Below are positions 719-53,029 of a DNA stretch of 53,634 nt, in pieces (position 1 is the stretch's first letter; each line of letters opens with the position of its first letter). The notes beneath the pieces are model-generated. The model ran no database searches and had not been told where the DNA came from. It was given only the letters and a program-made list of their open reading frames with translations. The translations under genes were made by a program, and so were the position numbers. The DNA comes from Candidatus Shapirobacteria bacterium (lineage in GTDB: Bacteria > Patescibacteriota > Microgenomatia > 0-14-0-10-38-17), in assembly GCA_018052565.1 (NCBI GenBank), contig JAGPNC010000004.1:1-53634 (forward strand), written 5' to 3'.

Positions 719-2250
719 TATTCTTCCCCAAATACTTCTGCCGTATAGGAGAAAAGCTCCGTCTGGGGGTGGCGCCAACAGCCCGCCGGCAGACCGGCCT
801 TCTCAAGACAAAGCTGGTCTAAAAACTCTTCCCTCTCCCAGCCGGTTTCTTTGGCCACTTGAGGCAAGAAAGTCGCACTTCGATTGCCATATTTTAAATA
901 AACGCCGTGCTTGCCCATTTCGATTTCTTCAATCGAATTAATCTTTTGCAATGGCGATAAAACAGAAATTTCTATTTTTACTTTATCCAACTCCTCAGGA
1001 GTAAGGGGCGGAAAACGAGGATCATCAAAAGCGGCCGCCAGAGCCATTTTCTCCACCTTCTCCCAAAGAGGCTCATTGGCGGAAAAATCGCCAATACAAC
1101 CCCGTAGTTGGCCTTCTTCTTTTAAGGTTACAAAAACGCCCCGCTTTTGCGCCAACGCCGGGGTAGGAGGCGGTTGGTCAGGCACTTTTCCTTTTTCAAA
1201 ATAGCTCTCAAGCACCTGCCTTGCCCAGGAGAGAAGCATTCTTTTCCCTTCTTGGGAAAGTTCTCCTTGAGCTTTGTCTTCCCCGCTTTGGCTAATCAAC
1301 TTTGGCATCTTTAGCCAAAAAGCAATCGCGGCGTAGCCAACAGCCTGATCGGTCTGCCCGGTAATTTCCCCAGAATTAGTTAAGGAAAAAAGTTTTTGCT
1401 TTGCTGTCCCCAAAATTTGGCCCACCTTAAGCCCTACCCGAATAGCTTCTTCTCCACAAGCAAAAGTGGCCACCTGTGGATAAGTTCTTCCCAGCTCCTT
1501 AAGCGTTTTTAAAAAGAGCTCTTCTTTGCCGGAAAGAATCGCCGCCACCGTTTGCTCATCAACCGTCCGAGCCAAATCAGCCGGGGGATAGTGAGAAAGA
1601 TCAGAGGAAACCACCAAAAGAGTTTGCTCATTAAAAATATTGCTTATTTTTTGCGCTAATGACGCCAAAACATTCTCGTCTGTTTGGCCAAGCAGGATAG
1701 GGATAATTTTAAAGTTTTCCCCTAAAACTTTTTGCAAAAAAGGAAGCATCACCTCTAAACAATGCTCGTTTTGGTGAGGCAGGCGGTTAACCACAATCCC
1801 CGTCTCTTTATCTTCAAGACGGGTAATTTTTTCCCGATCCAGCGCCACCTTACCTAAGGGAGTCTGCCAAAAATCGCCGCCGTCAATGGCGGCGCCCAAA
1901 AAATAAACCTGGTGAGCCGGTCCCAAAAGAATCACGGTTTTAAAATTCCCCTCCCTCACTCTGGCAAAAGCCTGAGCCGCTACCGCCCCCGAATAAGGAT
2001 AGCCCGCGTGGGGGACAATCAAAAAATTAGGCGCTTTTTTTCCCTCCTTTAATGGCCCTGCTTTGGCCAAAAAAGACGCCACTTGCTCGGCCAGCGCTTC
2101 TTTCTCTGCCGGATAAAACTGACCAGCCACCGCCGGTTCTCTTATTAAAATTTTCTCCATTTTTTCTTTTGCCTTCAACGCCAAGGCTACTGCCAACACC
2201 ACCAATAATCCTACCAAAATCAAACTGCCAATGATTACCTTTTTCTTCAT
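718..2250 (-). CDS. Fusion protein: Memo-like (AmmeMemoRadiSam system protein B) + AMMECR1 (protein A), with N-terminal membrane anchor
   Basis: 510-aa ORF. The N-terminus is hydrophobic (MKKKVIIGSLILVGLLVVLAVALA). Memo-type motifs: REPAVAGQFYP, LIVPHAGYPYSG, SSDLSHY. AMMECR1-type C-terminal half: RGVFVTLKEEGQLRGCIG, DPRFPPL. Confidence 0.85.
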   Translation of the reverse strand: MKKKVIIGSLILVGLLVVLAVALALKAKEKMEKILIREPAVAGQFYPAEKEALAEQVASFLAKAGPLKEGKKAPNFLIVPHAGYPYSGAVAAQAFARVREGNFKTVILLGPAHQVYFLGAAIDGGDFWQTPLGKVALDREKITRLEDKETGIVVNRLPHQNEHCLEVMLPFLQKVLGENFKIIPILLGQTDENVLASLAQKISNIFNEQTLLVVSSDLSHYPPADLARTVDEQTVAAILSGKEELFLKTLKELGRTYPQVATFACGEEAIRVGLKVGQILGTAKQKLFSLTNSGEITGQTDQAVGYAAIAFWLKMPKLISQSGEDKAQGELSQEGKRMLLSWARQVLESYFEKGKVPDQPPPTPALAQKRGVFVTLKEEGQLRGCIGDFSANEPLWEKVEKMALAAAFDDPRFPPLTPEELDKVKIEISVLSPLQKINSIEEIEMGKHGVYLKYGNRSATFLPQVAKETGWEREEFLDQLCLEKAGLPAGCWRHPQTELFSYTAEVFGEE

Positions 2251-2288
2251 TAGCCTCTTGCTTTATTGTATAATATTAAGACAAAGAA

Positions 2289-2785
2289 AGTATCAAGTAT
2301 TAGGTATTAAGTATTAAGTATAAAAAAACAAAAAACAATTAGCTACAAGTTGTCTAAAAAAGCATAACAGTTATTGCTAAAAATGGAAAAACGAGAGCAA
2401 AAAATCAAATCATTCACAGACTTAGTCGCCTGGCAAGAAGCACATAAGTTGGCAATCTTAATCTATAAAGTGACTAAAAACTTTCCGAAAGAAGAAATTT
2501 ATGGTTTAACTAACCAAATCCGAAGAGCGGTAATTTCTATTTCTTCAAATATCGCCGAAGGATTTTCTCGCCAATCAAGGTTAGAAAAAAGGCAGTTTTA
2601 TTACCAAGCGTTGGGATCCTTAACCGAACTCCAAAATCAGCTCCTTTTAGCTAAAGATGTTGGGTATTTAAGCGAAGATAACTTTCAGGAAATTGCTAAT
2701 CAAACTGTCACCGTTAGCAAGTTAATAAATTCCCTTATTAAATTTGTCAGAAATACTTAATACCTAATACATAATACTTAATACT
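2289..2785. mobile_element. GTATTAAGTAT-bounded element, copy B, carrying a four-helix-bundle gene
   Basis: The 33-nt left end AGTATCAAGTATTAGGTATTAAGTATTAAGTAT (2289-2321) matches the reverse complement of 2753-2785 at about 29 of 33 positions. The single internal ORF has its stop codon inside the right repeat. Confidence 0.7.
2374..2760 (+). CDS. Four-helix-bundle protein (23S rRNA intervening-sequence protein / Avd-like family)
   Basis: 128 aa with family hallmarks: FTDLVAWQEAHKL, GLTNQIRRAVISISSNIAEGFSR, YQALGSLTELQNQLLLA. Confidence 0.85.
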   Translation: MLKMEKREQKIKSFTDLVAWQEAHKLAILIYKVTKNFPKEEIYGLTNQIRRAVISISSNIAEGFSRQSRLEKRQFYYQALGSLTELQNQLLLAKDVGYLSEDNFQEIANQTVTVSKLINSLIKFVRNT

Positions 2786-4920: not shown

Positions 4921-5052
4921 AAGTCAAAAATTAAAATTTAAAAGTTAAAATTGCAAGTTAAAATTAAAAATTTTGAATTTTTCATTGGACTTTTGACTTT
5001 TTTCGCCAGAGGCGCACCCGCCTTGGGCGGGAACTTTTGACTTTTAACTTTC
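4921..5052. repeat. AAAGT-word hairpin element, copy 1, with embedded GC hairpin
   Basis: Left arm AAGTCAAAAATTAAAATTTAAAAGTTAAAATTG pairs with right arm CTTTTGACTTTT...ACTTTTGACTTTTAACTTT. A GC insert CGCCAGAGGCGCACCCGCCTTGGGCGGGAAC interrupts the right arm. An SD and ATG at 5075 follow directly. Confidence 0.75.
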
Positions 5053-6188: not shown

Positions 6189-6223
6189 TGCTTTTAGTAT
6201 AACACCCAGGGGGGTAATAGATA

Positions 6224-6297
6224 GTATTAAGTATTGCGTATTAAGCAAAATTCAAAAGTTAAAAGTTTTTTACTTTTGAATTTTGACTTTTAACTTT
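6224..6297. repeat. Partial GTATTAAGTAT word block plus short AAAGT-word hairpin
   Basis: GTATTAAGTATTGCGTATTAAG (6224-6245) is followed by the palindrome AAAATTCAAAAGTTAAAAGTTTTTTACTTTTGAATTTTGACTTTTAACTTTT. Confidence 0.7.
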
Positions 6298-14925: not shown

Positions 14926-15215
14926 GTATTAAGTATTAGGTATTAAGTAAAAACGCAAAATGCAAAGATTAGGAATCAAAACCTAGATCAAAAACCAAAA
15001 ATATCTTTGGGCTCTGGTTTTGATCTTTGATCTTGGTTCTACACTTTGATCTTTGATGTTTGGTCTATTCTTTTACTTTTCCGTCAGCCCCGCCGTGGCG
15101 GGGTCAGGATCTTTCTCTATTAGTAAAACAGATCCTGAATCAAGTTCAGGATGACGTTGAATTAAATTTACAACAGCATTGGGAATTATGTCCCAACCAC
15201 TTAATACTTAATACT
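14926..15215. repeat. Composite palindromic MITE-like element, copy D
   Basis: Starts GTATTAAGTATTAGGTATTAAGTA directly after the rnhA-like ATG and ends ACTTAATACTTAATACT. The right inner module 15147-15200 is nearly identical to 652-702. The centre is a GATCAAAG-word hairpin plus the GC hairpin CCCCGCCGTGGCGGGG. Confidence 0.8.
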
Positions 15216-19100: not shown

Positions 19101-19212
19101 AAAATTCAAAAGTCAAAATTCAAAAGTCAAAAGTGCAAGTTAAAATTAAAAAGTAAAAAACTTTTAACTTTTGAATTGAAATTTTGCCTTTTGAATTTTA
19201 ACTTTTAACTTT
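19101..19212. repeat. AAAGT-word hairpin element, copy 4
   Basis: AAAATTCAAAAGTCAAAATTCAAAAGTCAAAAGTGCAAGTTAAAATT...CTTTTAACTTTTGAATTGAAATTTTGCCTTTTGAATTTTAACTTTTAACTTT. The SD and ATG follow immediately. Confidence 0.75.
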
Positions 19213-23339: not shown

Positions 23340-24622
23340 TTAAGTATCAAATGAATGACTACACCTTTAATTTAGCAAAACGCATAGGAAATTTTTGCTC
23401 TGCGATTGGTATTAGGTCGCTATCATTGGGCTGAACATACAAAGTTAAGTTTTGTTTTACAACATCAAGTTTAGCTAAAACGTAAGTATTAAGGTATTCT
23501 GGACTTAAGTAAATTTGCTCTTTGAAAATCCGAATCGCTGGTTGTTCTTGCTCGTTGGTTCCAACTAGCCCGATAAGATAGATGGTCATCCTTGGTTTGG
23601 GCTCGAACTCTTTGGCTAAAAGATCTTGGTAGCCAAAGCTCTTATCCAGAAATCTCCCTGGTAACTTTCTTGGTAAGGAGGAGTAGGCTCGATACTCTTT
23701 CTCAAATCTGGCGACTACCTGGTCAATCTCAGCTAGGCTGGTGAAAGTATATCTTTTCCAAACTTTTTTTGGCAAAAACGCTATTAGTTCCTTCTACTGG
23801 ACCATTCATCCATGGTTTTTTGGAGGCGATGAAGAGAGGGGTAGCCCCTAAAAGCAAGAGATATCGGATGAAAGGAGAAATGATGCGGGGATTTTTCCCT
23901 GAAGCAGTAAAACTAAAGCCATTATCTAACCAAAGAGTATCAGGGATTGGTTATTGTTTCCAATCCCGGCTGGTAGTTTCCAGGGCCACCTCCATCCCCT
24001 GGTTGATAACTCTCTTTATTAATCTTAAAGTAGAAGGCTTTTTGTAGAACCTAGTAAAGAAATGGATTGGTTTGCTTGAGCCATAGATGTACTTGTGGCC
24101 AATAAAATCTATTCCCTCTTGGATTTTGCCCAATCCAGAAAGGGTAACTAAAGGATAATGTTGGTTTTCAACTACCTTGAGCATTCCCCGCCTACTCTTA
24201 GGAAAAGATTGATGGATAACTCTGGCCACAAAAGCCCGTTTTAAAGACCGGCTGTTACCATAGAATTTTCCATACTCATCTAATATTTTATCAGGTCCAA
24301 AGAAAAGGCAGAATGGGAAACAAAGCTTTCCCTAATTTTAATCACTCTTTGGGCCTCTACCTTAGTCAGAGAACGTCTTTTGCCTTTGGGCCAACCCCGC
24401 CTGTCCTTGGTAGAGCTACTTTTGCTCTTAGCCCACCGTTGGACAAAAGAACGAGAGACAGCAAGCTTTCTGGCAATTACGGATTTGTCAAGGCACTTTT
24501 GGAAGAAAAGCTCTTTGACTTGAGAGCGCTTCTTTTCTAAAGTCTGCTTGTCATACATAGGGGAATTTTACCCCAACGATGCTGATAGTGGCAAAGACTG
24601 TAGTCATTCATTTGATACTTAA
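23340..24622 (-). mobile_element. Decayed insertion sequence with 24-bp perfect terminal inverted repeats
   Basis: TTAAGTATCAAATGAATGACTACA at 23340-23363 is the exact reverse complement of 24599-24622. The 1283-bp element carries a broken HTH + DDE/integrase-core transposase gene. Confidence 0.8.
23359..24558 (-). pseudogene. Transposase (HTH + rve-like DDE core), disrupted
   Basis: ORF1 is an HTH (VIARKLAVSRSFVQRWAK). A frameshift near 24300 leads to FFGPDKILDEY...IDFIGHKYIYG. An in-frame TAA precedes PIPDTLWLDNGFSF...KKPWMNGPVEGTN. A further frameshift in a poly-A run leads to the C-terminal 138-aa ORF. Confidence 0.75.
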
Positions 24623-24659
24623 TACCTAGCCGCTACCAGGTAACAGTAAAAAACGCCCG

Positions 24660-29706: not shown

Positions 29707-29713
29707 AGAGAGA

Positions 29714-30010
29714 GTATTAAGTATTAAGTATAAAAAATATAAAAAAATTAAATCGCTCTATTGCTAAATTTCTGCAAAAAATGCAACTGTCATCATGGGC
29801 CCGTTGCAAATGTTATTTGCTAGGGGGTAAATTATTTTAATTATTCTAATTAACCTAATCTCTAAAGAAAGTCCAAATTGCCAAAAGCCCCAATCCCCAA
29901 ATAATTTTTAATTAGGTTTTGGGATTTCTTTAGGTCAATTAGAATAATTAGAGCAATTAGAACAATTTTTTGATCCGCTATTAATTTCAGGATAACGCTG
30001 GTAACAGGCT
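29714..30010. repeat. Composite element, copy E (left GTATTAAGTAT words, conserved loop hairpin, AATTAGAATAATT hairpin)
   Basis: GTATTAAGTATTAAGTAT at 29714-29731; GCCCGTTGCAAATGTTATTTGCTAGGGGG hairpin; arms 29829-29857 and 29930-29967. The right boundary is diffuse. Confidence 0.7.
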
Positions 30011-30067: not shown

Positions 30068-30841
30068 ATGATGAGCCAACTTCTTCTCTCCTGGAACGTT
30101 AACGGGCTTCGGTCTGTTTATCAAAAGGGGGCCTTAAATCAGGTTTTTCAGGAAAAAAAGCCGGATATTTTTTGCCTTCAGGAGGTTAAGGCCTCGCCAG
30201 ACCAATTGCCAGCCAATCTTGCCAAACTTGACGGCTATCATTTTTATTGCCATCCGGCGCAGAAAAAAGGCTATGCCGGCGTGGCTATCTATACGAAAGT
30301 TAAGCCTAAAGGGGTGAGGGAGAGGTTAGGCCTTTCCCGCTTCGACAGCGAAGGCCGATTTTTGGGTCTTAGCTTTGGCTCTTTTTTCTTGGCTAATTTT
30401 TATTTCCCTCACGGCGGCCGCCAAAAAGAAAATTTAGATTACAAACTAGAGGTTTATGATTATTTTTTGCGCTGGATTAGCCAGCATAAGGAAAAGAATT
30501 TAGTTATCGGCGGCGATTTTAACATTGCCCACGAACCTATCGACTTAGCTCGTCCTAAAGAAAACGAGAATAACACCATGTTTACTCCCCAGGAACGAGA
30601 GAAAATTGATGAACTAGTGGGTCTTGGTTTTGTTGACAGCTTTCGGCTTTTTAACAAAGAGAGCGGTCACTACACCTGGTGGCCATACTGGGGAAAAGCG
30701 CGGGAGCGCAATTTAGGCTGGCGGCTGGATTATATTTTTCTCTCTCCTAGTCTAAAGAAGAACCTCAGGGGAGCTTTTATTTTTCCCCAAATTACCGGCT
30801 CTGACCATTGCCCGGTGGGGGCGACTTTCGAGATAAAATAG
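30068..30841 (+). CDS. xth: Exodeoxyribonuclease III (AP endonuclease)
   Basis: SWNVNGLRS, DIFCLQEVK, GGDFNIAHEPIDL, SDHCPV. The stop codon overlaps the first base of the next repeat. Confidence 0.9.
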   Translation: MMSQLLLSWNVNGLRSVYQKGALNQVFQEKKPDIFCLQEVKASPDQLPANLAKLDGYHFYCHPAQKKGYAGVAIYTKVKPKGVRERLGLSRFDSEGRFLGLSFGSFFLANFYFPHGGRQKENLDYKLEVYDYFLRWISQHKEKNLVIGGDFNIAHEPIDLARPKENENNTMFTPQEREKIDELVGLGFVDSFRLFNKESGHYTWWPYWGKARERNLGWRLDYIFLSPSLKKNLRGAFIFPQITGSDHCPVGATFEIK

Positions 30842-31057
30842 TATTAAGTATTAAGTATAAAAAGTGGCCGGGGTATAATTCGTCATCCTGACCCCGTTAC
30901 AAATGATATTTGCTACGGGATAAATTATTCTAATTATTCTAATTGACCTAAGGAAATCCCAAAACCCAATTAAAAATTATTTGGAAATTGGGACTTTTGG
31001 CAATTTGGAATTTTTTTAGAAATTAGGTTAATTAGAATAATTAGAGTAATTGAGTAG
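30841..31057. repeat. Composite element, copy F (same left modules as copy E, hairpin core inverted)
   Basis: GTATTAAGTATTAAGTAT at 30841-30858; GTGGCCGGGGTATAATTCGTCATCCTGACC at 30864-30893; CCCCGTTACAAATGATATTTGCTACGGG hairpin; arms 30922-30951 and 31024-31057. Confidence 0.75.
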
Positions 31058-34223: not shown

Positions 34224-34387
34224 CAAATTCAAAATTCAAAATGCAAAAGTCAAAATTTCAATTAAAAAGTTAAAAGTTTTTTACTTTTTAATTTTTCCGC
34301 CAGCCCCCGCCACGGCAGGGCCAGAGGCGGACCCGCCTTTGGCGGAAACTTGCACTTTTAACTTTTGACTTTTAACTTTTAACTTTC
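34224..34387. repeat. AAAGT-word hairpin element, copy 5, with embedded GC hairpin
   Basis: CAAATTCAAAATTCAAAATGCAAAAGTCAAAATTTC...ACTTTTAACTTTTGACTTTTAACTTTTAACTTT. The GC insert TTCCGCCAGCCCCCGCCACGGCAGGGCCAGAGGCGGACCCGCCTTTGGCGGAA is homologous to that of copy 1. Confidence 0.75.
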
Positions 34388-35682: not shown

Positions 35683-36282
35683 AAACCTTTTTTATTCAAA
35701 ATTACTTTGGTTTTTTAATTGTGGCGGGGCGCAATCCCCAATTATCCTGAACTTGCCTACACTGCCCGTCCAGCAGGCGGATCCGCCGACGGAGTCAGGA
35801 TAACAAACTATATCCTATCCATTTTAATTATATTCTTCTCCTTGGAAGAAAAAATATAACTTGAGGCGCTTCGATTTAGCAGCCTCTTAGCATCTTAATC
35901 TTTACTAAATAGTCGCTTCGCCAAGCATTTATTTGCCAATAGGCAAGGAGAGAAAGCCCCGGCCTCTTTCTTTCAATGCGGCATAAAAATGAACGATCGC
36001 TTGTTTTTATGTCACGCTTTATACTTATAAACTAACAAAAAGGGTAGTCTCCTTTGCTTTATCTTCCCATCGCTCTCGTTTCAAAATGCCAATTATCCCG
36101 ATACTACGCTACCCCATCAATTCATAGTAACGGAATTCTTATCGTCTTCGGCTATCGAAAATCTCGGAGCCTGAAGGATTACCAACGACAGGGAATTGGA
36201 AAAAAATTTTGCAACCGGGTTATAGTAACGAATATATTTCAGGCGATTAACGCTTAATAAACAATCTTGATACTTATCTTGC

Positions 36283-38844: not shown

Positions 38845-39020
38845 AAGAAAAAGTTAACTAAGGTTAGTTTAGCGCTTTTGTCAAGCGATTTTTGTGCGGT
38901 GTCCAAGACATACTATACACTTTCTAAGACTTGATTACGACTTTTTTGTCAAGAAGGTGTTAAAATTGGCAGGCATTAGTTCGGCCAGTTTTAACAAGGA
39001 GGTGAAAGAGTATAAAGCAT

Positions 39021-39596
39021 AAAGCGGGGATTAACTTCAAAAACCCAAGGAGAGTTAACCCCAAAGCAGTCAGATTGGCGGTTTTGGAGTATCCAGACGC
39101 AAATAAAGGTAATGTTGCCGCTGTCGTCGGAAACTTTGACATTAACCGAACGGCGGTTTATGGCATCGCCAAGAAAGATAGAAAAGGAGACCGCGAGAAC
39201 TGAGCGGGGATTCCAAGATGCCGGCTGGGAAAAACCCTCCCGGGAATAGAAGATAAGGAATTGATGTTAGAAAAAAACCTGCTTAGGGCCAGAAAGATTG
39301 CCACGGTATTTCTTAAAGCACGAGAAGATTCTTGCCCCCGGGGGGTTATCCGTCGTATCCTAAGAAAGAAAGGGAGTTATCTAATCGGTTAAGGGTGAGG
39401 GGAGAAAAGAGAGCTTATCAGTTGGTATGCCGCCAAACCTTTTGAGATTGTCCAAATGGATGTGAAGTTCACCCGCGATCATAAAGCTTTAAGCCGTAAG
39501 CAGATTATCCGTCCCGACCATCATCGGATATCGGATCCCCGATTACCGGCGGGGACTTTGGATATTAACTCTCGTCTTGGTCCGCCGAGCCGCTGA
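39021..39596 (+). pseudogene. Decayed IS481/rve-type transposase
   Basis: HTH-like KAVRLAVLEY...NRTAVYGIAKK is broken by stops. Next comes RGVIRRILRKKG, then AKPFEIVQMDVKFT...LDINSR (integrase-core entry motif). No start codon, several stops, truncated. Confidence 0.65.
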
Positions 39597-39720
39597 CGGG
39601 AAATGCCGCATCCCTCTCTTAGTTACTAAACGCCCCCCAATATCTTCGGCGGGTCATTTCGATCTCCCTTAATTATCTTTTTCGCACGCGATTTTTCCTT
39701 TTTGGGCCGCAAAAAGTATT

Positions 39721-40041
39721 TTATTTTCCTTCTCTAGCTTCTCTCGCCCACTTAGCCCTTGCCTCTGCCCGAGCCTTTTCTAAATCTTCATCACTTGCGC
39801 TTGCAGAAAGACCAAAAGCTCTTCTTGCCACCTCAGCCTCTGCCTCTTCCCGAGCCTTTTTTAAATCTTCATCACTTGCGTCTTCAGGAAGATTATGGAT
39901 TTCTCTTGCTATCCTAGCGTATATCTCTCCCCAATATTTTTCTACTGGATCTTCGTCTCCATGAGGACCATAGATTTCTCTTGCTACCTTCTCCATTATA
40001 TCCTCTTCCCCTGCTCCCTTTGCTCTCTCTGTTTTTGGCAT
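39721..40041 (-). CDS. Small acidic protein with internal duplication, function unknown
   Basis: 106 aa with a strong SD (AAGGAGG 6 nt upstream). It contains the duplicated segment DASDEDLKKAREEAEAE / SASDEDLEKARAEARA. Confidence 0.55.
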   Translation of the reverse strand: MPKTERAKGAGEEDIMEKVAREIYGPHGDEDPVEKYWGEIYARIAREIHNLPEDASDEDLKKAREEAEAEVARRAFGLSASASDEDLEKARAEARAKWAREAREGK

Positions 40042-40741
40042 ATTACCGCCTCCTTTCTTTTGAAATTTATAAAAAATTGGTTATAACGGCTAAAGTATAT
40101 CAAAAACCTATAATTATTACATCTTCGGATTTAAAAATCTTTGGCTAATTTTAATCTTATAAAGATTTTCAATAAAATCAGTTCCGGCATAGCCGGCCAG
40201 AAAAGAAGCTTGCCGCCCGGTATCAGCCAAAATTCTGGCAACAGCTCAAACAATTCCAGAAATTCCGATAGTTATCAAAAAATATTTAGGTTTGAAATGG
40301 TTTGCCTTTTAGTTAGTTTTTTTGACAAAAACGACTAATCCTCTGATTATTCCTTCAAAAAATCCCGTAGGCAAAAAGATATATCAAAAATTTTTCCGTG
40401 TCAAACCAATTATATTATACACCAATCTGCCAAACCCGATAGTAAAGCTTAATCATCACCATTCTTGTCTTATTTTGAGGAAAGCTCCTTCAGGGGATAT
40501 CTTTGGGTGAAACGGCAGAAGCAATAAAGAAAAACCGCGAGGAGAAAGCGCCGACATTATCTGATTTTCCCTGCCCCATAAACCCTAGGATGTTTTTGAT
40601 ATAGAAGTGCTGCGGATGTTTCTCAATTTACGCAAGGAATTTTTAAACATATCCTGGTTTTATCAACAAAATTTAAAATCAGCTTTTCTCTCTGAATATT
40701 TTAGCACAGGGGGCATACTTTCCCTAAGGTTTGCCGGCATC

Positions 40742-46021: not shown

Positions 46022-49000
46022 CTATTGAGAACTATCCCAGTAGGGGTCGAGATTTTCCAAAAAGATCCGCACTTCTTCGCTGTCGCTAAAAAGACGATGA
46101 GGCGAACTCTGCGGCCCAAGAAAAGTTGATTCCTTCTCCAGCTTGATTAAATTAGTAATTGTCGTTGGCACCGGTCCGTCTAGTTGATTATAACGAAGAT
46201 GTAAGCCTATCAACGTTGTCAAATTGCCGATTGCTTCGGGAATGTGGCCGGAAAGCTGGTTGTCATCAAGATGAAGGCTGGTTAATTGGGTAAGGTTGCC
46301 GATTGTTTCGGGGATGGAACCGGAAAGCTGGTTGGTAAAAAGATAAAGCTCGGTTAATTGGGTAAGGTTGCCGATTGTTTCGGGGATGGAACCGGAGAGC
46401 TGGTTAGCGTAAAGCCAAAGTTCTTTCAGTTGGGACAAGCCGCCGATTGTTTCGGGGATGGAACCGGAAAGCTGGTTATTGTTAAGATAAAGGTCGGTTA
46501 ATTGAGTAAGGTTGCCGATTGTTTCGGGGATGGAACCGGAAAGCTGGTTAGCGTGAAGCCAAAGTTCTTTCAGTTGGGACAAGTTGCCGATTGTTTCGGG
46601 GATGGAACCGGAAAGCTGGTTATTGTTAAGATAAAGGCCGGTTAATTGGGTAAGGTTGCCGATGCTGGCCGGGATAGAACCGGAGAGTTGGTTATAAAAA
46701 AGATAAAGTTCTCTCAGTTGGGACAAGTTGCCGATTGTTTCGGGGATAGGATCGGAAAACTGGTTATTGTCAAGATAAAGGCCGGTTAATTGGGTAAGGT
46801 TGCCGATGCTGGCCGGGATAGAACCGGAGAGTTGGTTAGTGCCTAGATAAAGTTCTCTTAGTTGGGACAAGTTGCCGATTGTTTCGGGGATGGAACCGGA
46901 AAGCTCGTTAAGCTGAAGATAAAGTCCTTTTAGTTGGGACAAGTTGCCGATTGTTTCGGGGATGGAACCGGAAAGTTGATTGCCGTTAAGACGAAGATTA
47001 GCCACATGGCCGTCTTCACAAGTCACTCCATACCAGCCGCACGGCTTGGTATTCAAATCCCACCTATTATCCCAGCCTGAACCGTTAGTTTGCCTGTATA
47101 AGTCCAGAAGCGCCGCCTTTTCTTCGGCAGAAACTTCCCCCTCTTCGATAGGGGTAATTGACACCGGCGCTGTGGTTGGCGTAGGCGTGACCGTCGGTGG
47201 CTTTTCGGTCACTGTCTCCCCCTGTTTATCAAAATTCTCCACCAACAAAGCGTAATCAAAAATATCAATTCGCCCATTGCCGTTGAGGTCGGGCGCCAAA
47301 CCCGTTTCTTCTTTGCCAAAATCTTCCAAAAGAGCATTATAATCAAAAATATCAATTTTGTTGTTATTGTCAATATCGCCCGCTAAAAGCTGGCCCACCG
47401 CCACGGCCTTAATCTCCCCCTTGTTTAAGGATACCTCCGGAATGACTCGGCTTAAATGAACCGGCCCCTTAACCCAAAAGGAAGTATTTTCCAAATCAGA
47501 ATTCTGGTCGCTCATAATTTGTACCGGCGAAAAACCTTCGGCGCCAATTTCTAACTGGTAAGAGGCAATTTCTCCCCCCGAAGCATTATAAATTTTTACC
47601 GTTACCAAAGAATGATTATCCTGACGATTTTGTAATTTTAAATTAATTTGAAAAGCAGGATGATCGGGGTGGGGAGTAACTATTGGCGTAGGAGCAGGCG
47701 TCGCCGTTGGCGCAGGGGTAGGCGTCGCCGTTGGCGCAGGAGTAGGGGTAGAGAGGGGAGTTGGAGAAAGAGTAACGGTCGGAGTTGGCGTAATTGAAGT
47801 CGATGGAAAAGAGGCCGCTCGCTCCATTGCCGCCAACACATCTATTAGCCCCGCTCCATATTCCAATTCATTGTAATTAGGAATCGCTACCTTATTTGCC
47901 GTCTCTTCTAAAATGCTTTTAACATCTATTGGCGAAAGATTGGGATTAATACTTAGCATTAATGCTATCGTCGCAGTCACATGCGGCGTAGCCATTGAAG
48001 TCCCTTGGTAAAGAATCAGGGGAAATATATACCAACCAGGTCTACTGGGATCGGGGATATAACAATAATAATATTCTCCCCCTGAAAGTACGTAAAAAAC
48101 CTCTGTAAAATTTTCGAAATCGTTAGGAAAAATAGTCTGTTGAACAATGCCATCAGCCAGCCCGTCTTCGTTTTGGTCCCATAAATCATCCTCATTATCG
48201 TTAAATATTTGTCCCCCGGGGGCAACCAAATCCAAGGCTTCGCCATAATCGGAATAATAAGCCCTAACGTTATCCCAACGCGTTGCCCCCACGGCAATTG
48301 CTTCCTCATACTTAGCCGGATAAAGCATGTTATAAGCGGAAGGAGCTCCTCGGCTGGCGTCGTTTCCCGAAGCAGCCACTACCACTATTCCCGCCTCTAC
48401 TGCCCTTTCAATAGCCTCATGCAATGTCTCTGCTGCGAATGATTGTCCGAAACTCATATTAATAATATCGGCGCCCTTGCTCACCGCATAGTCAATTCCT
48501 TCAATTATGTCTGAAGTATAACCTTCGCCATTTGAATCCAAAGACTTAATAGGGATAATCGTTATTCTTGGGGCAATACCAGCAGCATGGGCGCCATTGT
48601 TTGTCTCTTGAGCAATAGTGGCCGTTACGTGCGTTCCATGACCATGATCATCATTTGGATGGCTATTCCTAATCGTTTCCACGTATCCGCCATTATTATC
48701 AAAAACGCTGGTAATTCTCCGCGGCGAGGAAAAATTAGTGTACGCCAATTCGGGCGCTTTTCCGTATTGAGCTGAACCATTGTTATAATCCTCGAAGGCC
48801 ACCCCCGTATCAATCACCGCCACCTTAATTTCCGGGCCACCCCCTTGACGAGCAACCTCAAACTCTTCCCATGCCTGAGGCAAGCTAATTCTTTCCAAGT
48901 TCCACTGGAAATAGTCCTTTGGGGATTTATCGCCTCCCTCGCCAACAAGATAAGGATCGTTTGGTGCCCATAGAAGGTGAACCGGGTAATTGGGTTCCGC

Positions 49001-49504
49001 CACCACCACCTCTCTTTCTTGAGAATAATCTACAATTGCTTCGGCCAGATTTACTTCTTCGGGAAGTTCGACCATTACCGTTCTCTCGGCCACTCTTGTT
49101 CTTCCTAAAGCCTCCATCCTTTCTATCCCCAGCTTTTTGTTTAAATCAGTTACGCCGCTCATCCCCTTAACGGCAATCCCTCCTTTTCGAAGAACCACTT
49201 TCTTGCCAAGGAGACTCACGGAAATTTCTTTTTCTTCCTCAATAACTGGCTTTTTCTTAAAAGTAATGATGATTTGTCTTGGAATCTTCTCTTCCTTTAA
49301 AAACCGTCCCGCCGGCGAAATTCTTGAAACATCTTGGGAAATTTCAAAAGGAGAAGGTGCTTGCGCAAAAATCAATTTTGGGGAATAATTCCCCGAAGCA
49401 AAAAAACTTACCGCCACTGCCAAAAATATCGCCGCAGAGAAAAACCGCTTTGCTCTTAAAAAAGCGGGGGTATTTTCTCCTCTCTTGTCATTCTTGTCTT
49501 CCAC
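46022..49504 (-). CDS. Surface S8 (subtilisin-like) peptidase fused to dockerin-like repeats and 12 plant-type leucine-rich repeats
   Basis: 1160 aa. Catalytic triad contexts: VIDTGV, HGTHVTA, GTSMATPHV. PT-rich linkers. Two EF-hand-like repeats: DIDNNNKIDIFDYNALL and DLNGNGRIDIFDYALL. LRRNT-like cap CGWYGVTC, followed by 24-aa LxxLxxLxLxxNQLSGSIPETIGN repeats. Confidence 0.85.
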   Translation of the reverse strand: MEDKNDKRGENTPAFLRAKRFFSAAIFLAVAVSFFASGNYSPKLIFAQAPSPFEISQDVSRISPAGRFLKEEKIPRQIIITFKKKPVIEEEKEISVSLLGKKVVLRKGGIAVKGMSGVTDLNKKLGIERMEALGRTRVAERTVMVELPEEVNLAEAIVDYSQEREVVVAEPNYPVHLLWAPNDPYLVGEGGDKSPKDYFQWNLERISLPQAWEEFEVARQGGGPEIKVAVIDTGVAFEDYNNGSAQYGKAPELAYTNFSSPRRITSVFDNNGGYVETIRNSHPNDDHGHGTHVTATIAQETNNGAHAAGIAPRITIIPIKSLDSNGEGYTSDIIEGIDYAVSKGADIINMSFGQSFAAETLHEAIERAVEAGIVVVAASGNDASRGAPSAYNMLYPAKYEEAIAVGATRWDNVRAYYSDYGEALDLVAPGGQIFNDNEDDLWDQNEDGLADGIVQQTIFPNDFENFTEVFYVLSGGEYYYCYIPDPSRPGWYIFPLILYQGTSMATPHVTATIALMLSINPNLSPIDVKSILEETANKVAIPNYNELEYGAGLIDVLAAMERAASFPSTSITPTPTVTLSPTPLSTPTPAPTATPTPAPTATPAPTPIVTPHPDHPAFQINLKLQNRQDNHSLVTVKIYNASGGEIASYQLEIGAEGFSPVQIMSDQNSDLENTSFWVKGPVHLSRVIPEVSLNKGEIKAVAVGQLLAGDIDNNNKIDIFDYNALLEDFGKEETGLAPDLNGNGRIDIFDYALLVENFDKQGETVTEKPPTVTPTPTTAPVSITPIEEGEVSAEEKAALLDLYRQTNGSGWDNRWDLNTKPCGWYGVTCEDGHVANLRLNGNQLSGSIPETIGNLSQLKGLYLQLNELSGSIPETIGNLSQLRELYLGTNQLSGSIPASIGNLTQLTGLYLDNNQFSDPIPETIGNLSQLRELYLFYNQLSGSIPASIGNLTQLTGLYLNNNQLSGSIPETIGNLSQLKELWLHANQLSGSIPETIGNLTQLTDLYLNNNQLSGSIPETIGGLSQLKELWLYANQLSGSIPETIGNLTQLTELYLFTNQLSGSIPETIGNLTQLTSLHLDDNQLSGHIPEAIGNLTTLIGLHLRYNQLDGPVPTTITNLIKLEKESTFLGPQSSPHRLFSDSEEVRIFLENLDPYWDSSQ
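46157..47008 (-). repeat. Tandem 72-bp (144-bp super-period) coding repeats encoding the LRR array
   Basis: GTTGCCGATTGTTTCGGGGATGGAACCGGAAAGCTGGTT recurs about every 72 bp. Units alternate between LTQLT..LYLNNNQ and LSQLKELWL.ANQ types. Confidence 0.85.
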
Positions 49505-52796: not shown

Positions 52797-53029
52797 GGTC
52801 ATCCTACCCGATTTTAAATAATATTTGCGGGCTGGGTTGAACAAAGCGTCATCCTGACGAAAGTCAGGATCAGTTTTTAATTTTCAATTTTCATTTCTCA
52901 ATTTTCAATCAATTTTCATTTAACTAATAAAACAATTTTCAAAATAAAACTAACCTTTTTTCAAAAAAACTAATAGATGAAAATTAAAAATTGTAAATTG
53001 AAAATTAGTCTTTAACTTTTAACTTAAGA
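52797..53029. repeat. Composite hairpin element, copy G (conserved loop hairpin, GNRA hairpin, GAAAATT-word hairpin)
   Basis: GGTCATCCTACCCGATTTTAAATAATATTTGCGGGC; ATCCTGAC-GAAA-GTCAGGAT (52851-52870); AATTTTCAATTTTCATTTCTCAATTTTCAATC...GATGAAAATTAAAAATTGTAAATTGAAAATT. Confidence 0.7.

Follow-up and report, generated by a model that had tools for sequence, protein, structure and literature searches.

In the 53,634-nt stretch of Candidatus Shapirobacteria contig JAGPNC010000004.1 analysed here (the window; all coordinates refer to its forward strand), a small gene for a four-helix-bundle protein is enclosed by inverted arrays of a tandem heptamer, gene and arrays together forming a unit of 498 nt, measured from arm to arm, between the Memo-AMMECR1 and valS genes. 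Its anatomy is that of the intervening sequences (IVSs) of 23S rRNA genes that bear an open reading frame (ORF), placed outside rRNA. With moderate confidence, we regard the stretch 2288-2785 as a free-standing IVS-type cassette that resides in the valS mRNA leader instead of in rRNA. Gene and arms constitute a discrete unit, which recurs across phyla, is nearly always wedged co-directionally between its neighbours, and is inherited, and occasionally duplicated, as a block.

The two arms, 2289-2321 and 2753-2785, form an inverted repeat of 33 nt per arm with a spacing of 431 nt. Complementarity extends to 30 of the 33 positions (91%); a preliminary description of this DNA, made from its letters alone, had counted about 29. 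The arms are composed of tandem GTATTAA heptamers and one-base variants of these. The left (5') arm (2288-2321, forward strand; AAGTATT, 4.9 copies) reads GTATCAA, GTATTAG, GTATTAA, GTATTAA and GTAT, and contains the G-containing version of the word. The right (3') arm (2752-2785, reverse strand; AATACTT, 4.9 copies) is the reverse complement of the left-arm word family. The final codons of the gene, AGA AAT ACT TAA (Arg, Asn, Thr and stop; 2749-2760), overlap the right arm, as the preliminary description had noted, and the valS GTG codon is at 2790, 4 nt past it. The exact fit claimed between valS and the Memo-AMMECR1 start stands on the valS side; on the other side, 38 nt separate the left arm from the start codon of Memo-AMMECR1 (2248-2250), a gene divergent from the unit, which means that the two are not immediately adjacent. 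In the predicted RNA fold of 2280-2795, the minimum-free-energy structure is closed by the arms as its outermost stem (z -3.5).

The four-helix-bundle gene (2383-2760, forward strand) is the sole gene between the arms, as had been stated before. It encodes 125 amino acids from the ATG at 2383; translation from the in-frame TTG at 2374 would yield 128 amino acids, and homologs begin at the ATG position. The product matches PF05635 (E 3.8e-39; 133.6 bits against a cutoff of 33.8) and TIGR02436 (125.4 bits against a cutoff of 24). The AlphaFold2 model of the monomer (pLDDT 90.6) contains helices at residues 11-31, 42-62, 66-92 and 98-124. Foldseek superimposes it onto 2GSC (XCC0516) with a TM score of 0.82 and an rmsd of 1.3 (phmmer to 2GSC, E 6.5e-21), and the fold also matches 2RLD (BT_0352) and Avd, a protein of diversity-generating retroelements (DGRs); both 2GSC and 2RLD have five chains per entry, a homopentameric toroid being a trait ascribed to the family. 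The connection of the family to IVSs and to Avd, given in the preliminary description, is correct. Avd is a pentamer working within a ribonucleoprotein on RNA of its own locus, in which distal segments flanking the template pair (10.1101/2023.10.23.563531), and by analogy the four-helix-bundle protein could bind RNA.

The reading frame is intact, with conservation across about 4,900 homologs. Judged by the names of homologs, the source organism belongs to the Patescibacteria/CPR, probably to the Microgenomates group. Matches in Pfam and NCBIfam are confined to four-helix-bundle families, with no transposase match and no known catalytic motif, and a PADLOC scan for defence systems gave no match for the protein. 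In a lookup of exact protein sequences, the 128-residue product with the TTG start had no record; for the 125-residue product, the only records were two short contigs of this locus, which are identical to the window and so carry no information on polymorphism. A phmmer search revealed no second family member in the window.

The Avd-related fold, together with a weak match to the Pfam model bAvd, might be taken to mean that the gene is a DGR remnant, an Avd gene left without its reverse transcriptase. The scores are below the Avd cutoffs, however (34.8 bits against 40 for bAvd and 28 against 80 for NF033474), and these profile comparisons assign the protein to PF05635/TIGR02436, not to the DGR Avd equivalogs. 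The likeness to DGR Avd (4DWL, 8UB7) consists of the four-helix-bundle fold, with Avd itself forming a pentamer. Unlike in a DGR, the unit has Memo-AMMECR1 and ValS as its neighbours, neither of these two adjacent genes, to which the check was confined, is a reverse transcriptase, and no template/variable repeat pair is seen around it. We attach next to no probability to a DGR origin of this kind.

The arrangement of gene and arms was compared in a sample from the candidate phyla radiation (CPR), comprising 79 loci from species-representative genomes of many CPR lineages (448 kb, with 82 family genes or units); L-numbers below denote fetched comparison loci. Arms were called at an inverted-repeat score of at least 12, in tight or wider flank windows. 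In tight flanks, 50 of 73 family genes reach this score, against 1 of 163 neighbouring genes; as further controls, arms paired across loci reach it in 79 of 431 cases and arms in direct orientation in 4 of 73. In wider flanks, 72 of the 82 family units pass, against 6 of 114 small-ORF controls. The preliminary description had called for such a check of the paralogs and had reckoned with the chance that they lack these termini; the opposite was found. When all fetched loci were searched blindly, four other ORFs flanked by inverted repeats were obtained, two of which are divergent members of the same family. Of the period-7 arrays in the 448 kb, 67 out of 130 are within 90 nt of the end of a family gene; in 551 kb of loci anchored on ValS, there are 20 period-7 arrays and no family gene. 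Outside the PF05635 family, genes are hardly ever enclosed by inverted heptamer arrays.

The period and the size of the arms are narrowly distributed. The best autocorrelation lag is 7 in 66 of 82 5' flanks and in 73 of 82 3' flanks, and the median number of copies per arm is 4.1-4.3 (interquartile range 3.6-4.9). The words themselves fall into classes, GTATnnn in 47 of the 82 units, GAATnnn in 28 and others in 7, and the class (GTAT or GAAT) follows that of the protein's nearest neighbour in 67 of 75 cases. The G-containing arm is on the 5' side in 71 of 72 units, independent of the strand read. Arms within a unit match each other better than arms from different units of one word class (median 17 versus 12, p 2e-9). 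A homolog from Microgenomates bacterium UTCPR1 (75% identical) is located at an unrelated locus, between the genes of an fn3 protein and an ABC transporter, and has GTATTAA arrays that abut its ATG and overlap its stop codon; the three closest homologs (76-81% identical) occupy the same fn3/ABC locus and have the same arms.

These comparisons refute a chance juxtaposition, in which an abundant intergenic word would flank a small gene on both sides by accident. Such a coincidence would be in keeping with the eight further sites at which the window carries the word, most of them lacking the four-helix-bundle gene. Homologs at other loci and in other phyla share the arrangement, though, and control genes do not; furthermore, no other array of the word in the window is as long as the two arms of the unit. 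Coincidence thus retains a vanishingly small probability.

The units have a preferred orientation. They are co-oriented with the upstream gene in 61 of 63 cases and with both neighbours in 54 of 63, the background for adjacent gene pairs being 232 on the same strand versus 76 on opposite strands. The median gaps to the neighbouring genes, 30 and 25 nt, are filled by the arms. As this leaves no room for a promoter of its own, both arms of a unit must usually share one read-through transcript.

The boundaries of the unit are defined by two paralogs at L015, which lie 2 kb apart and are 85% identical between the outer edges of their 5' and 3' arrays, with unrelated flanks. Since the likeness spans exactly this interval, gene and arms were copied as one unit; in some pairs from different genomes, an identity of 87-90% is restricted to the gene. 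A syntenic locus without the unit, as the preliminary description had proposed to look for, was found at L174 (ValS 88% and Memo 76% identical to those of the window). There, the divergent Memo/valS junction is kept, with a spacer of 101 nt that contains a solo array of the TGTTAAA type and no four-helix-bundle gene. In another relative, L172 (ValS 91% identical), the Memo/valS spacer (750-1358) is occupied by a gene for an NYN-domain protein (a PIN-like nuclease), with a GTAT-type array beside its start. The Memo/valS spacer is a variable hot spot. Relatives of ValS from JGI metagenomes (59-68% identical) have neither Memo nor a four-helix-bundle gene upstream and yielded no usable empty site; the route through Memo did.

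It had been suggested that in this lineage the gene spreads as the passenger of a repeat element. The coherence of the unit, its copying as a block at L015 and the junction without it at L174 bear out part of this. The pattern is, however, family-wide and not specific to the lineage, with genuine 23S rRNA IVSs included; the arms are more aptly described as the gene family's own termini than as a repeat element with a passenger, and mobility appears slow. The other suggestion in the preliminary description, that the protein may act on the DNA or RNA of the element, would draw indirect support from the period of seven, the four to five copies per arm and the way in which word class tracks the protein clade.

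Outside the CPR, family genes were detected by tblastn on plasmids of cyanobacteria, Riemerella and Azospirillum. Inverted heptamer arrays are present in 7 of the 10 plasmid loci that were read, again with the G-rich arm 5', and the words differ widely: GGGTGTA, CAGGAGT, GGAGATA, CAGAGGG, AAGGTTT, GGACAGA and AAGGGAA. On the plasmids of Pseudanabaena (L179) and Picosynechococcus (L180), the family genes are located between cas6 and cas4 in one case and between cmr2 and cmr3 in the other. The family is listed among CRISPR-associated domains (PMC10910872), and wedging of the unit within cas operons may be the reason for this listing. In Azospirillum lipoferum plasmid AZO_p2 (L183), the unit is embedded in a 23S rRNA gene (a match of 516 bits to Rfam LSU at model positions 859-1655) and has arm words in GGACAGA/GGACGGA arrays. 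Because of this location, L183 is a genuine IVS.

IVSs in 23S rRNA, and the S23p or four-helix-bundle ORFs within them, have been known since about 1990. An rRNA IVS that carries an S23p ORF and has heptamers and a stem of inverted repeats is already a known type of element, and neither the family nor its fold is new. IVSs are inserted at helix 9, 25 or 45 of 23S rRNA, and their excision by RNase III is not followed by religation. The IVS of Coxiella burnetii is 428 nt long and has a terminal stem of 28 bp, with three to four tandem GACAGAT words, their number varying between strains, directly upstream of the S23p start; its excision by RNase III has been demonstrated, with a cut at the first repeat (PMC4990558). 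In CPR bacteria, family ORFs have been reported within insertions of both 16S and 23S rRNA genes (PMC11270868).

The window unit resembles the ORF-bearing 23S rRNA IVSs of Coxiella burnetii, Leptospira and L183 in that a single PF05635 (S23p) ORF fills the loop, terminal inverted repeats of tandem heptamers are placed at the start and stop of this ORF, and, in the predicted fold, these repeats close a stem around the whole insert. The size is also similar (428 nt in Coxiella, 498 nt in the window), the G-rich arm is 5' and a transposase is lacking. It differs in its location between Memo-AMMECR1 and valS, outside rRNA; an Rfam search at the gathering threshold and a tRNA search returned no match in the window. 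Moreover, its word (GTATTAA) is AT-rich and it has a leader of 61 nt, and excision by RNase III, demonstrated for the rRNA insert, would here be an extrapolation.

If the window unit is a cassette of this type, it would be transcribed by read-through or, in the window, perhaps by initiation immediately ahead of the left arm. The arms would pair in the transcript, forming an imperfect stem of about 30 bp from which the ORF is looped out. By analogy with rRNA IVSs, RNase III probably cuts this stem, which would detach the cassette RNA and leave the RNA of the neighbouring genes unharmed. Because such a cut would free it harmlessly, the cassette would be tolerated in rRNA, in operons and in 5' leaders alike. 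As a second layer, the protein, as a pentamer, probably binds the heptamer arrays of its own element, which could explain the period of seven as well as the copy number. Modules without an ORF and solo arrays, where built from the same word, would then be derivatives or targets of the same system.

A number of observations weigh against the cassette interpretation. Cleavage of the arms is extrapolated from rRNA IVSs, and the RNase III signature motif is absent from the 53-kb window, a result that is uninformative for a single piece of a genome. Mismatches between arms, read on the sense strand, are of the G.U type in 42 cases and of the A.C type in 46, giving no signal of covariation. Variant heptamers do not follow a mirrored order in the two arms (observed inverted-repeat score 15.4, versus 15.9 after permutation), so base-for-base pairing is not visibly optimised. 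No target-site duplication was found, the longest shared word outside the arms having a mean length of 3.36 nt in 64 units versus 3.39 nt in cross-locus controls (for the window, the flanks compared were TAAGACAAAGAAAG and CTACCCGTGGACAA). Many units are syntenic between genomes, with flanks about 70% identical in DNA, and the copy at the fn3/ABC locus is conserved in four genomes. The spacer of L174 is too diverged for exact breakpoints to be assigned or for gain to be told from loss. The Pseudanabaena plasmid locus (L179) has long direct (AAAGCTA)n arrays on both sides, not inverted ones. The window unit is itself atypical, a rare exception in being divergent from its upstream neighbour and in having the 61-nt leader (2322-2382, forward strand), an A-rich segment between left arm and ATG that is absent from most homologous units, in which the left arm is 0-20 nt from the start codon. 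An insertion sequence or miniature inverted-repeat transposable element with terminal inverted repeats would be expected to show target-site duplications, which the units lack.

Tandem-repeat arms would pair in several registers anyway, and the negative pairing tests fit at least as well with arrays whose main role is to offer binding sites to the four-helix-bundle oligomer rather than to form an RNA stem. In that case, about four to five sites per arm, spaced by 7 nt, would be available to a pentamer on DNA or single-stranded RNA, in a symmetric layout like that of the subterminal repeats of transposons. Dispersed arrays of the word would be additional sites, and the relationship would be like that in REPIN-RAYT systems, where a single protein gene lies between members of a dispersed repeat family and serves that family; binding of this kind can coexist with the cassette. 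The period of seven is kept whatever the word and the phylum, the copy number of about four to five per arm is narrow, and the G-rich arm is 5' with the single exception mentioned above. The five chains in 2GSC and 2RLD and the RNA-binding pentamer of Avd are in agreement with an oligomeric reader, and both the unmirrored order of variants and the absence of a wobble bias are expected for sites rather than for a selected duplex. Word class tracks the protein clade, and residue 66, at the start of helix 3, is Tyr or Phe in 26 of 28 GAAT-class proteins and mostly Lys, Asn or Arg in the GTAT class, a correlation for which common ancestry is a confounder. For dispersed arrays, a 7-mer in common with the arms of the local family gene is found in 18 of 53 cases; with arms from other loci, the figure is 47 of 530. 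On the other hand, arrays next to family genes are no longer than dispersed arrays across the loci and equal to them in copy number, and many of the dispersed arrays use other words. The protein lacks any known catalytic motif and matches neither a PADLOC entry nor a transposase, and in Coxiella the S23p protein is seemingly not made while the RNA stem is processed (PMC4990558). As the primary role of the arrays, we consider protein binding a possibility of some weight, although on the unlikely side. Two other roles were rejected. Arrays as pads of stop codons in all frames fail when all words are considered, CAGGAGT having no forward stop, and the GTAT words do not resemble Shine-Dalgarno sequences, as pairs of Shine-Dalgarno and anti-Shine-Dalgarno segments would require.

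The arm word is abundant elsewhere in the window. With at most one mismatch, GTATTAAGTAT occurs 21 times, where 0.73 occurrences are expected, and none of 100 shuffled sequences reaches 21. Two ORF-less modules are bounded by the same word in inverted orientation. The first, at 306-719, has arms at 306-324 and 705-719, and the second, at 14926-15215, has arms at 14926-14949 and 15199-15215; in both, the arms are the outer stem of the fold (z -8.3 in each case). The second module fills the spacer between two co-oriented genes of the minus strand, from stop codon to start codon. Solo arrays of the word are found just after the stop codon of a gene at 29713-29731 (forward strand) and following a stop codon at 30840-30858, and shorter ones are at 6223-6245 and 24615-24625. 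Termini of the GTATTAA type are therefore not exclusive to the four-helix-bundle gene. The ORF-less modules share the arm word alone with the gene-bearing unit. Remnants of gene units were considered as their origin and rejected, as the inner sequences are unrelated and phmmer finds no second copy of the gene in the window. Directly interior to the 3' arm of both modules, at 655-690 and 15153-15188, there is a shared block, ACGTTGAATTAAATTTACAA(T/C)AGCA, which looks promoter-like (TTGAAT ... TAAGAAT).

Many spacers in the window consist of inverted word arrays without a four-helix-bundle gene, which is what would be expected if the arrays were a form of host punctuation, neither mobile nor selfish: hairpins for RNA processing or insulation, or elements of expression control, around an ordinary host gene gated by sequestration of its start region in a stem with the 3' arm. 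The synteny of units with flanks about 70% identical, the absence of target duplications and an intact ORF conserved in so many homologs also fit into this picture. At the fn3/ABC locus of the four genomes (L003, 4446-4480; L186; L187; L188), the 3' array encodes the first residues of the ABC transporter (M-I/M-H/Q-N-T-I-I), so that repeat sequence has been recruited into a coding start. Host punctuation nevertheless leaves unexplained why inverted heptamer arrays are nearly exclusive to one gene family, why units are located within rRNA genes and between plasmid cas genes, why the likeness of the L015 paralogs ends at the outer array edges, and why a close relative (L174) has no unit at the junction. 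We judge this alternative improbable.

The cassette interpretation can also be set against known repeat systems. Correia and NEMIS-type elements are short, flanked by inverted repeats and co-transcribed with their neighbours, and Correia hairpins are substrates of RNase III; Correia elements carry no gene and make target duplications. In cyanobacterial short tandemly repeated repetitive (STRR) sequences, tandem heptamers fill intergenic DNA and small dispersed repeats are embedded in them. To our knowledge, STRR arrays have not been tied to PF05635 genes; the cyanobacterial plasmid loci suggest that they may be. The likeness to REPIN-RAYT systems (PMC3116915) is one of architecture only: a single gene lies between inverted copies of a repeat that is also dispersed extragenically, as singlets and as inverted doublets able to form hairpins. 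The window protein is a helical bundle of 125 residues, unlike the HUH/Y1 transposase of those systems, its arms are tandem heptamer arrays instead of repetitive extragenic palindromes, and no excision or insertion events were observed.

More broadly, all PF05635 genes, thousands per phylum, might be the protein-coding core of one ancient, unrecognised class of elements, for which the name IVS cassette would be suitable. Such an element would have about four to five inverted heptamers per side, recognised by its own pentamer, would live inside transcripts, its stem being removed from the RNA, would give rise to ORF-less derivatives and to dispersed arrays (REPIN-like and possibly including cyanobacterial STRR sequences), and would be the source of the 23S rRNA IVSs. 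In this general form, the proposal is speculative, and we consider it unlikely to hold in full.

The origin and mobility of 23S rRNA IVSs and S23p ORFs, and the function of the protein, have remained unexplained (PMC4990558). In the searchable literature, from which subscription journals are largely missing, we found no statement of free-standing family genes in an mRNA context with inverted heptamer arms across phyla, nor any description of co-oriented insertion into operons or of arms that delimit a duplicated unit. If the free-standing genes are the same element in other transcripts, they provide thousands of natural replicates, with different heptamer words, in which arms and protein can be tested, and an old unsolved element becomes easier to study. 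The occurrence of family genes wedged in operons, cas operons included, would be accounted for. Arms and gene could be annotated as one feature, and arrays that overlap the start or stop codons of neighbouring genes could be interpreted correctly.

Upstream of the left arm, a weak candidate promoter for the unit and valS was read by eye at 2246-2274 (forward strand; TTCATT, 17 nt, TATAAT). It is below the scan threshold, and a promoter and terminator scan of 2150-2900 gave no matches on the forward strand. The candidate overlaps a block, ATTATACAAT, that is conserved in relatives (L172-L174) upstream of Memo, on the opposite strand. The variant heptamer GTATCAA, present at 2293-2299 and at 314-320, gives TTGATAC on the opposite strand, which makes a good hexamer of the -35 type. 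As the TTGATAC of the left arm is upstream of the conserved block before Memo, the left-arm array might contribute to the Memo promoter, judging from the sequence.

Other repeats are present in the window and in the comparison loci. At L053 (5148-5438), a small ORF for a GIY-YIG nuclease (96 amino acids) is contained within an inverted repeat of 22 nt (TGTCATCCTGAACTTGTTTCAG / CTGAAATAAATTCAGAATGACA) that is not built from heptamers. A second family is nested in GTAT-bounded spacers at 470-620, 29830-29967 and 30923-31051, where inverted arrays of a 9-mer (ATTATTCTAATTA... / ...AATTAGAATAATTAGAGCAATTAGAA) surround a short GC hairpin. The spacers at 4921-5051, 19101-19212, 34225-34386 and 52870-53007 contain inverted pairs of other heptamer words, for example eight copies of AAAAGTC directly against eight of AACTTTT, with no accompanying four-helix-bundle gene. 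Three stretches of 600-880 nt (35683-36282, 38845-39720 and 40042-40741) are without an ORF of at least 70 amino acids. An 81-nt repeat is located at 39739-39892, and a 72-nt tandem repeat of about ten copies (46220-46996) lies inside an ORF of 1160 amino acids on the minus strand (46022-49504).

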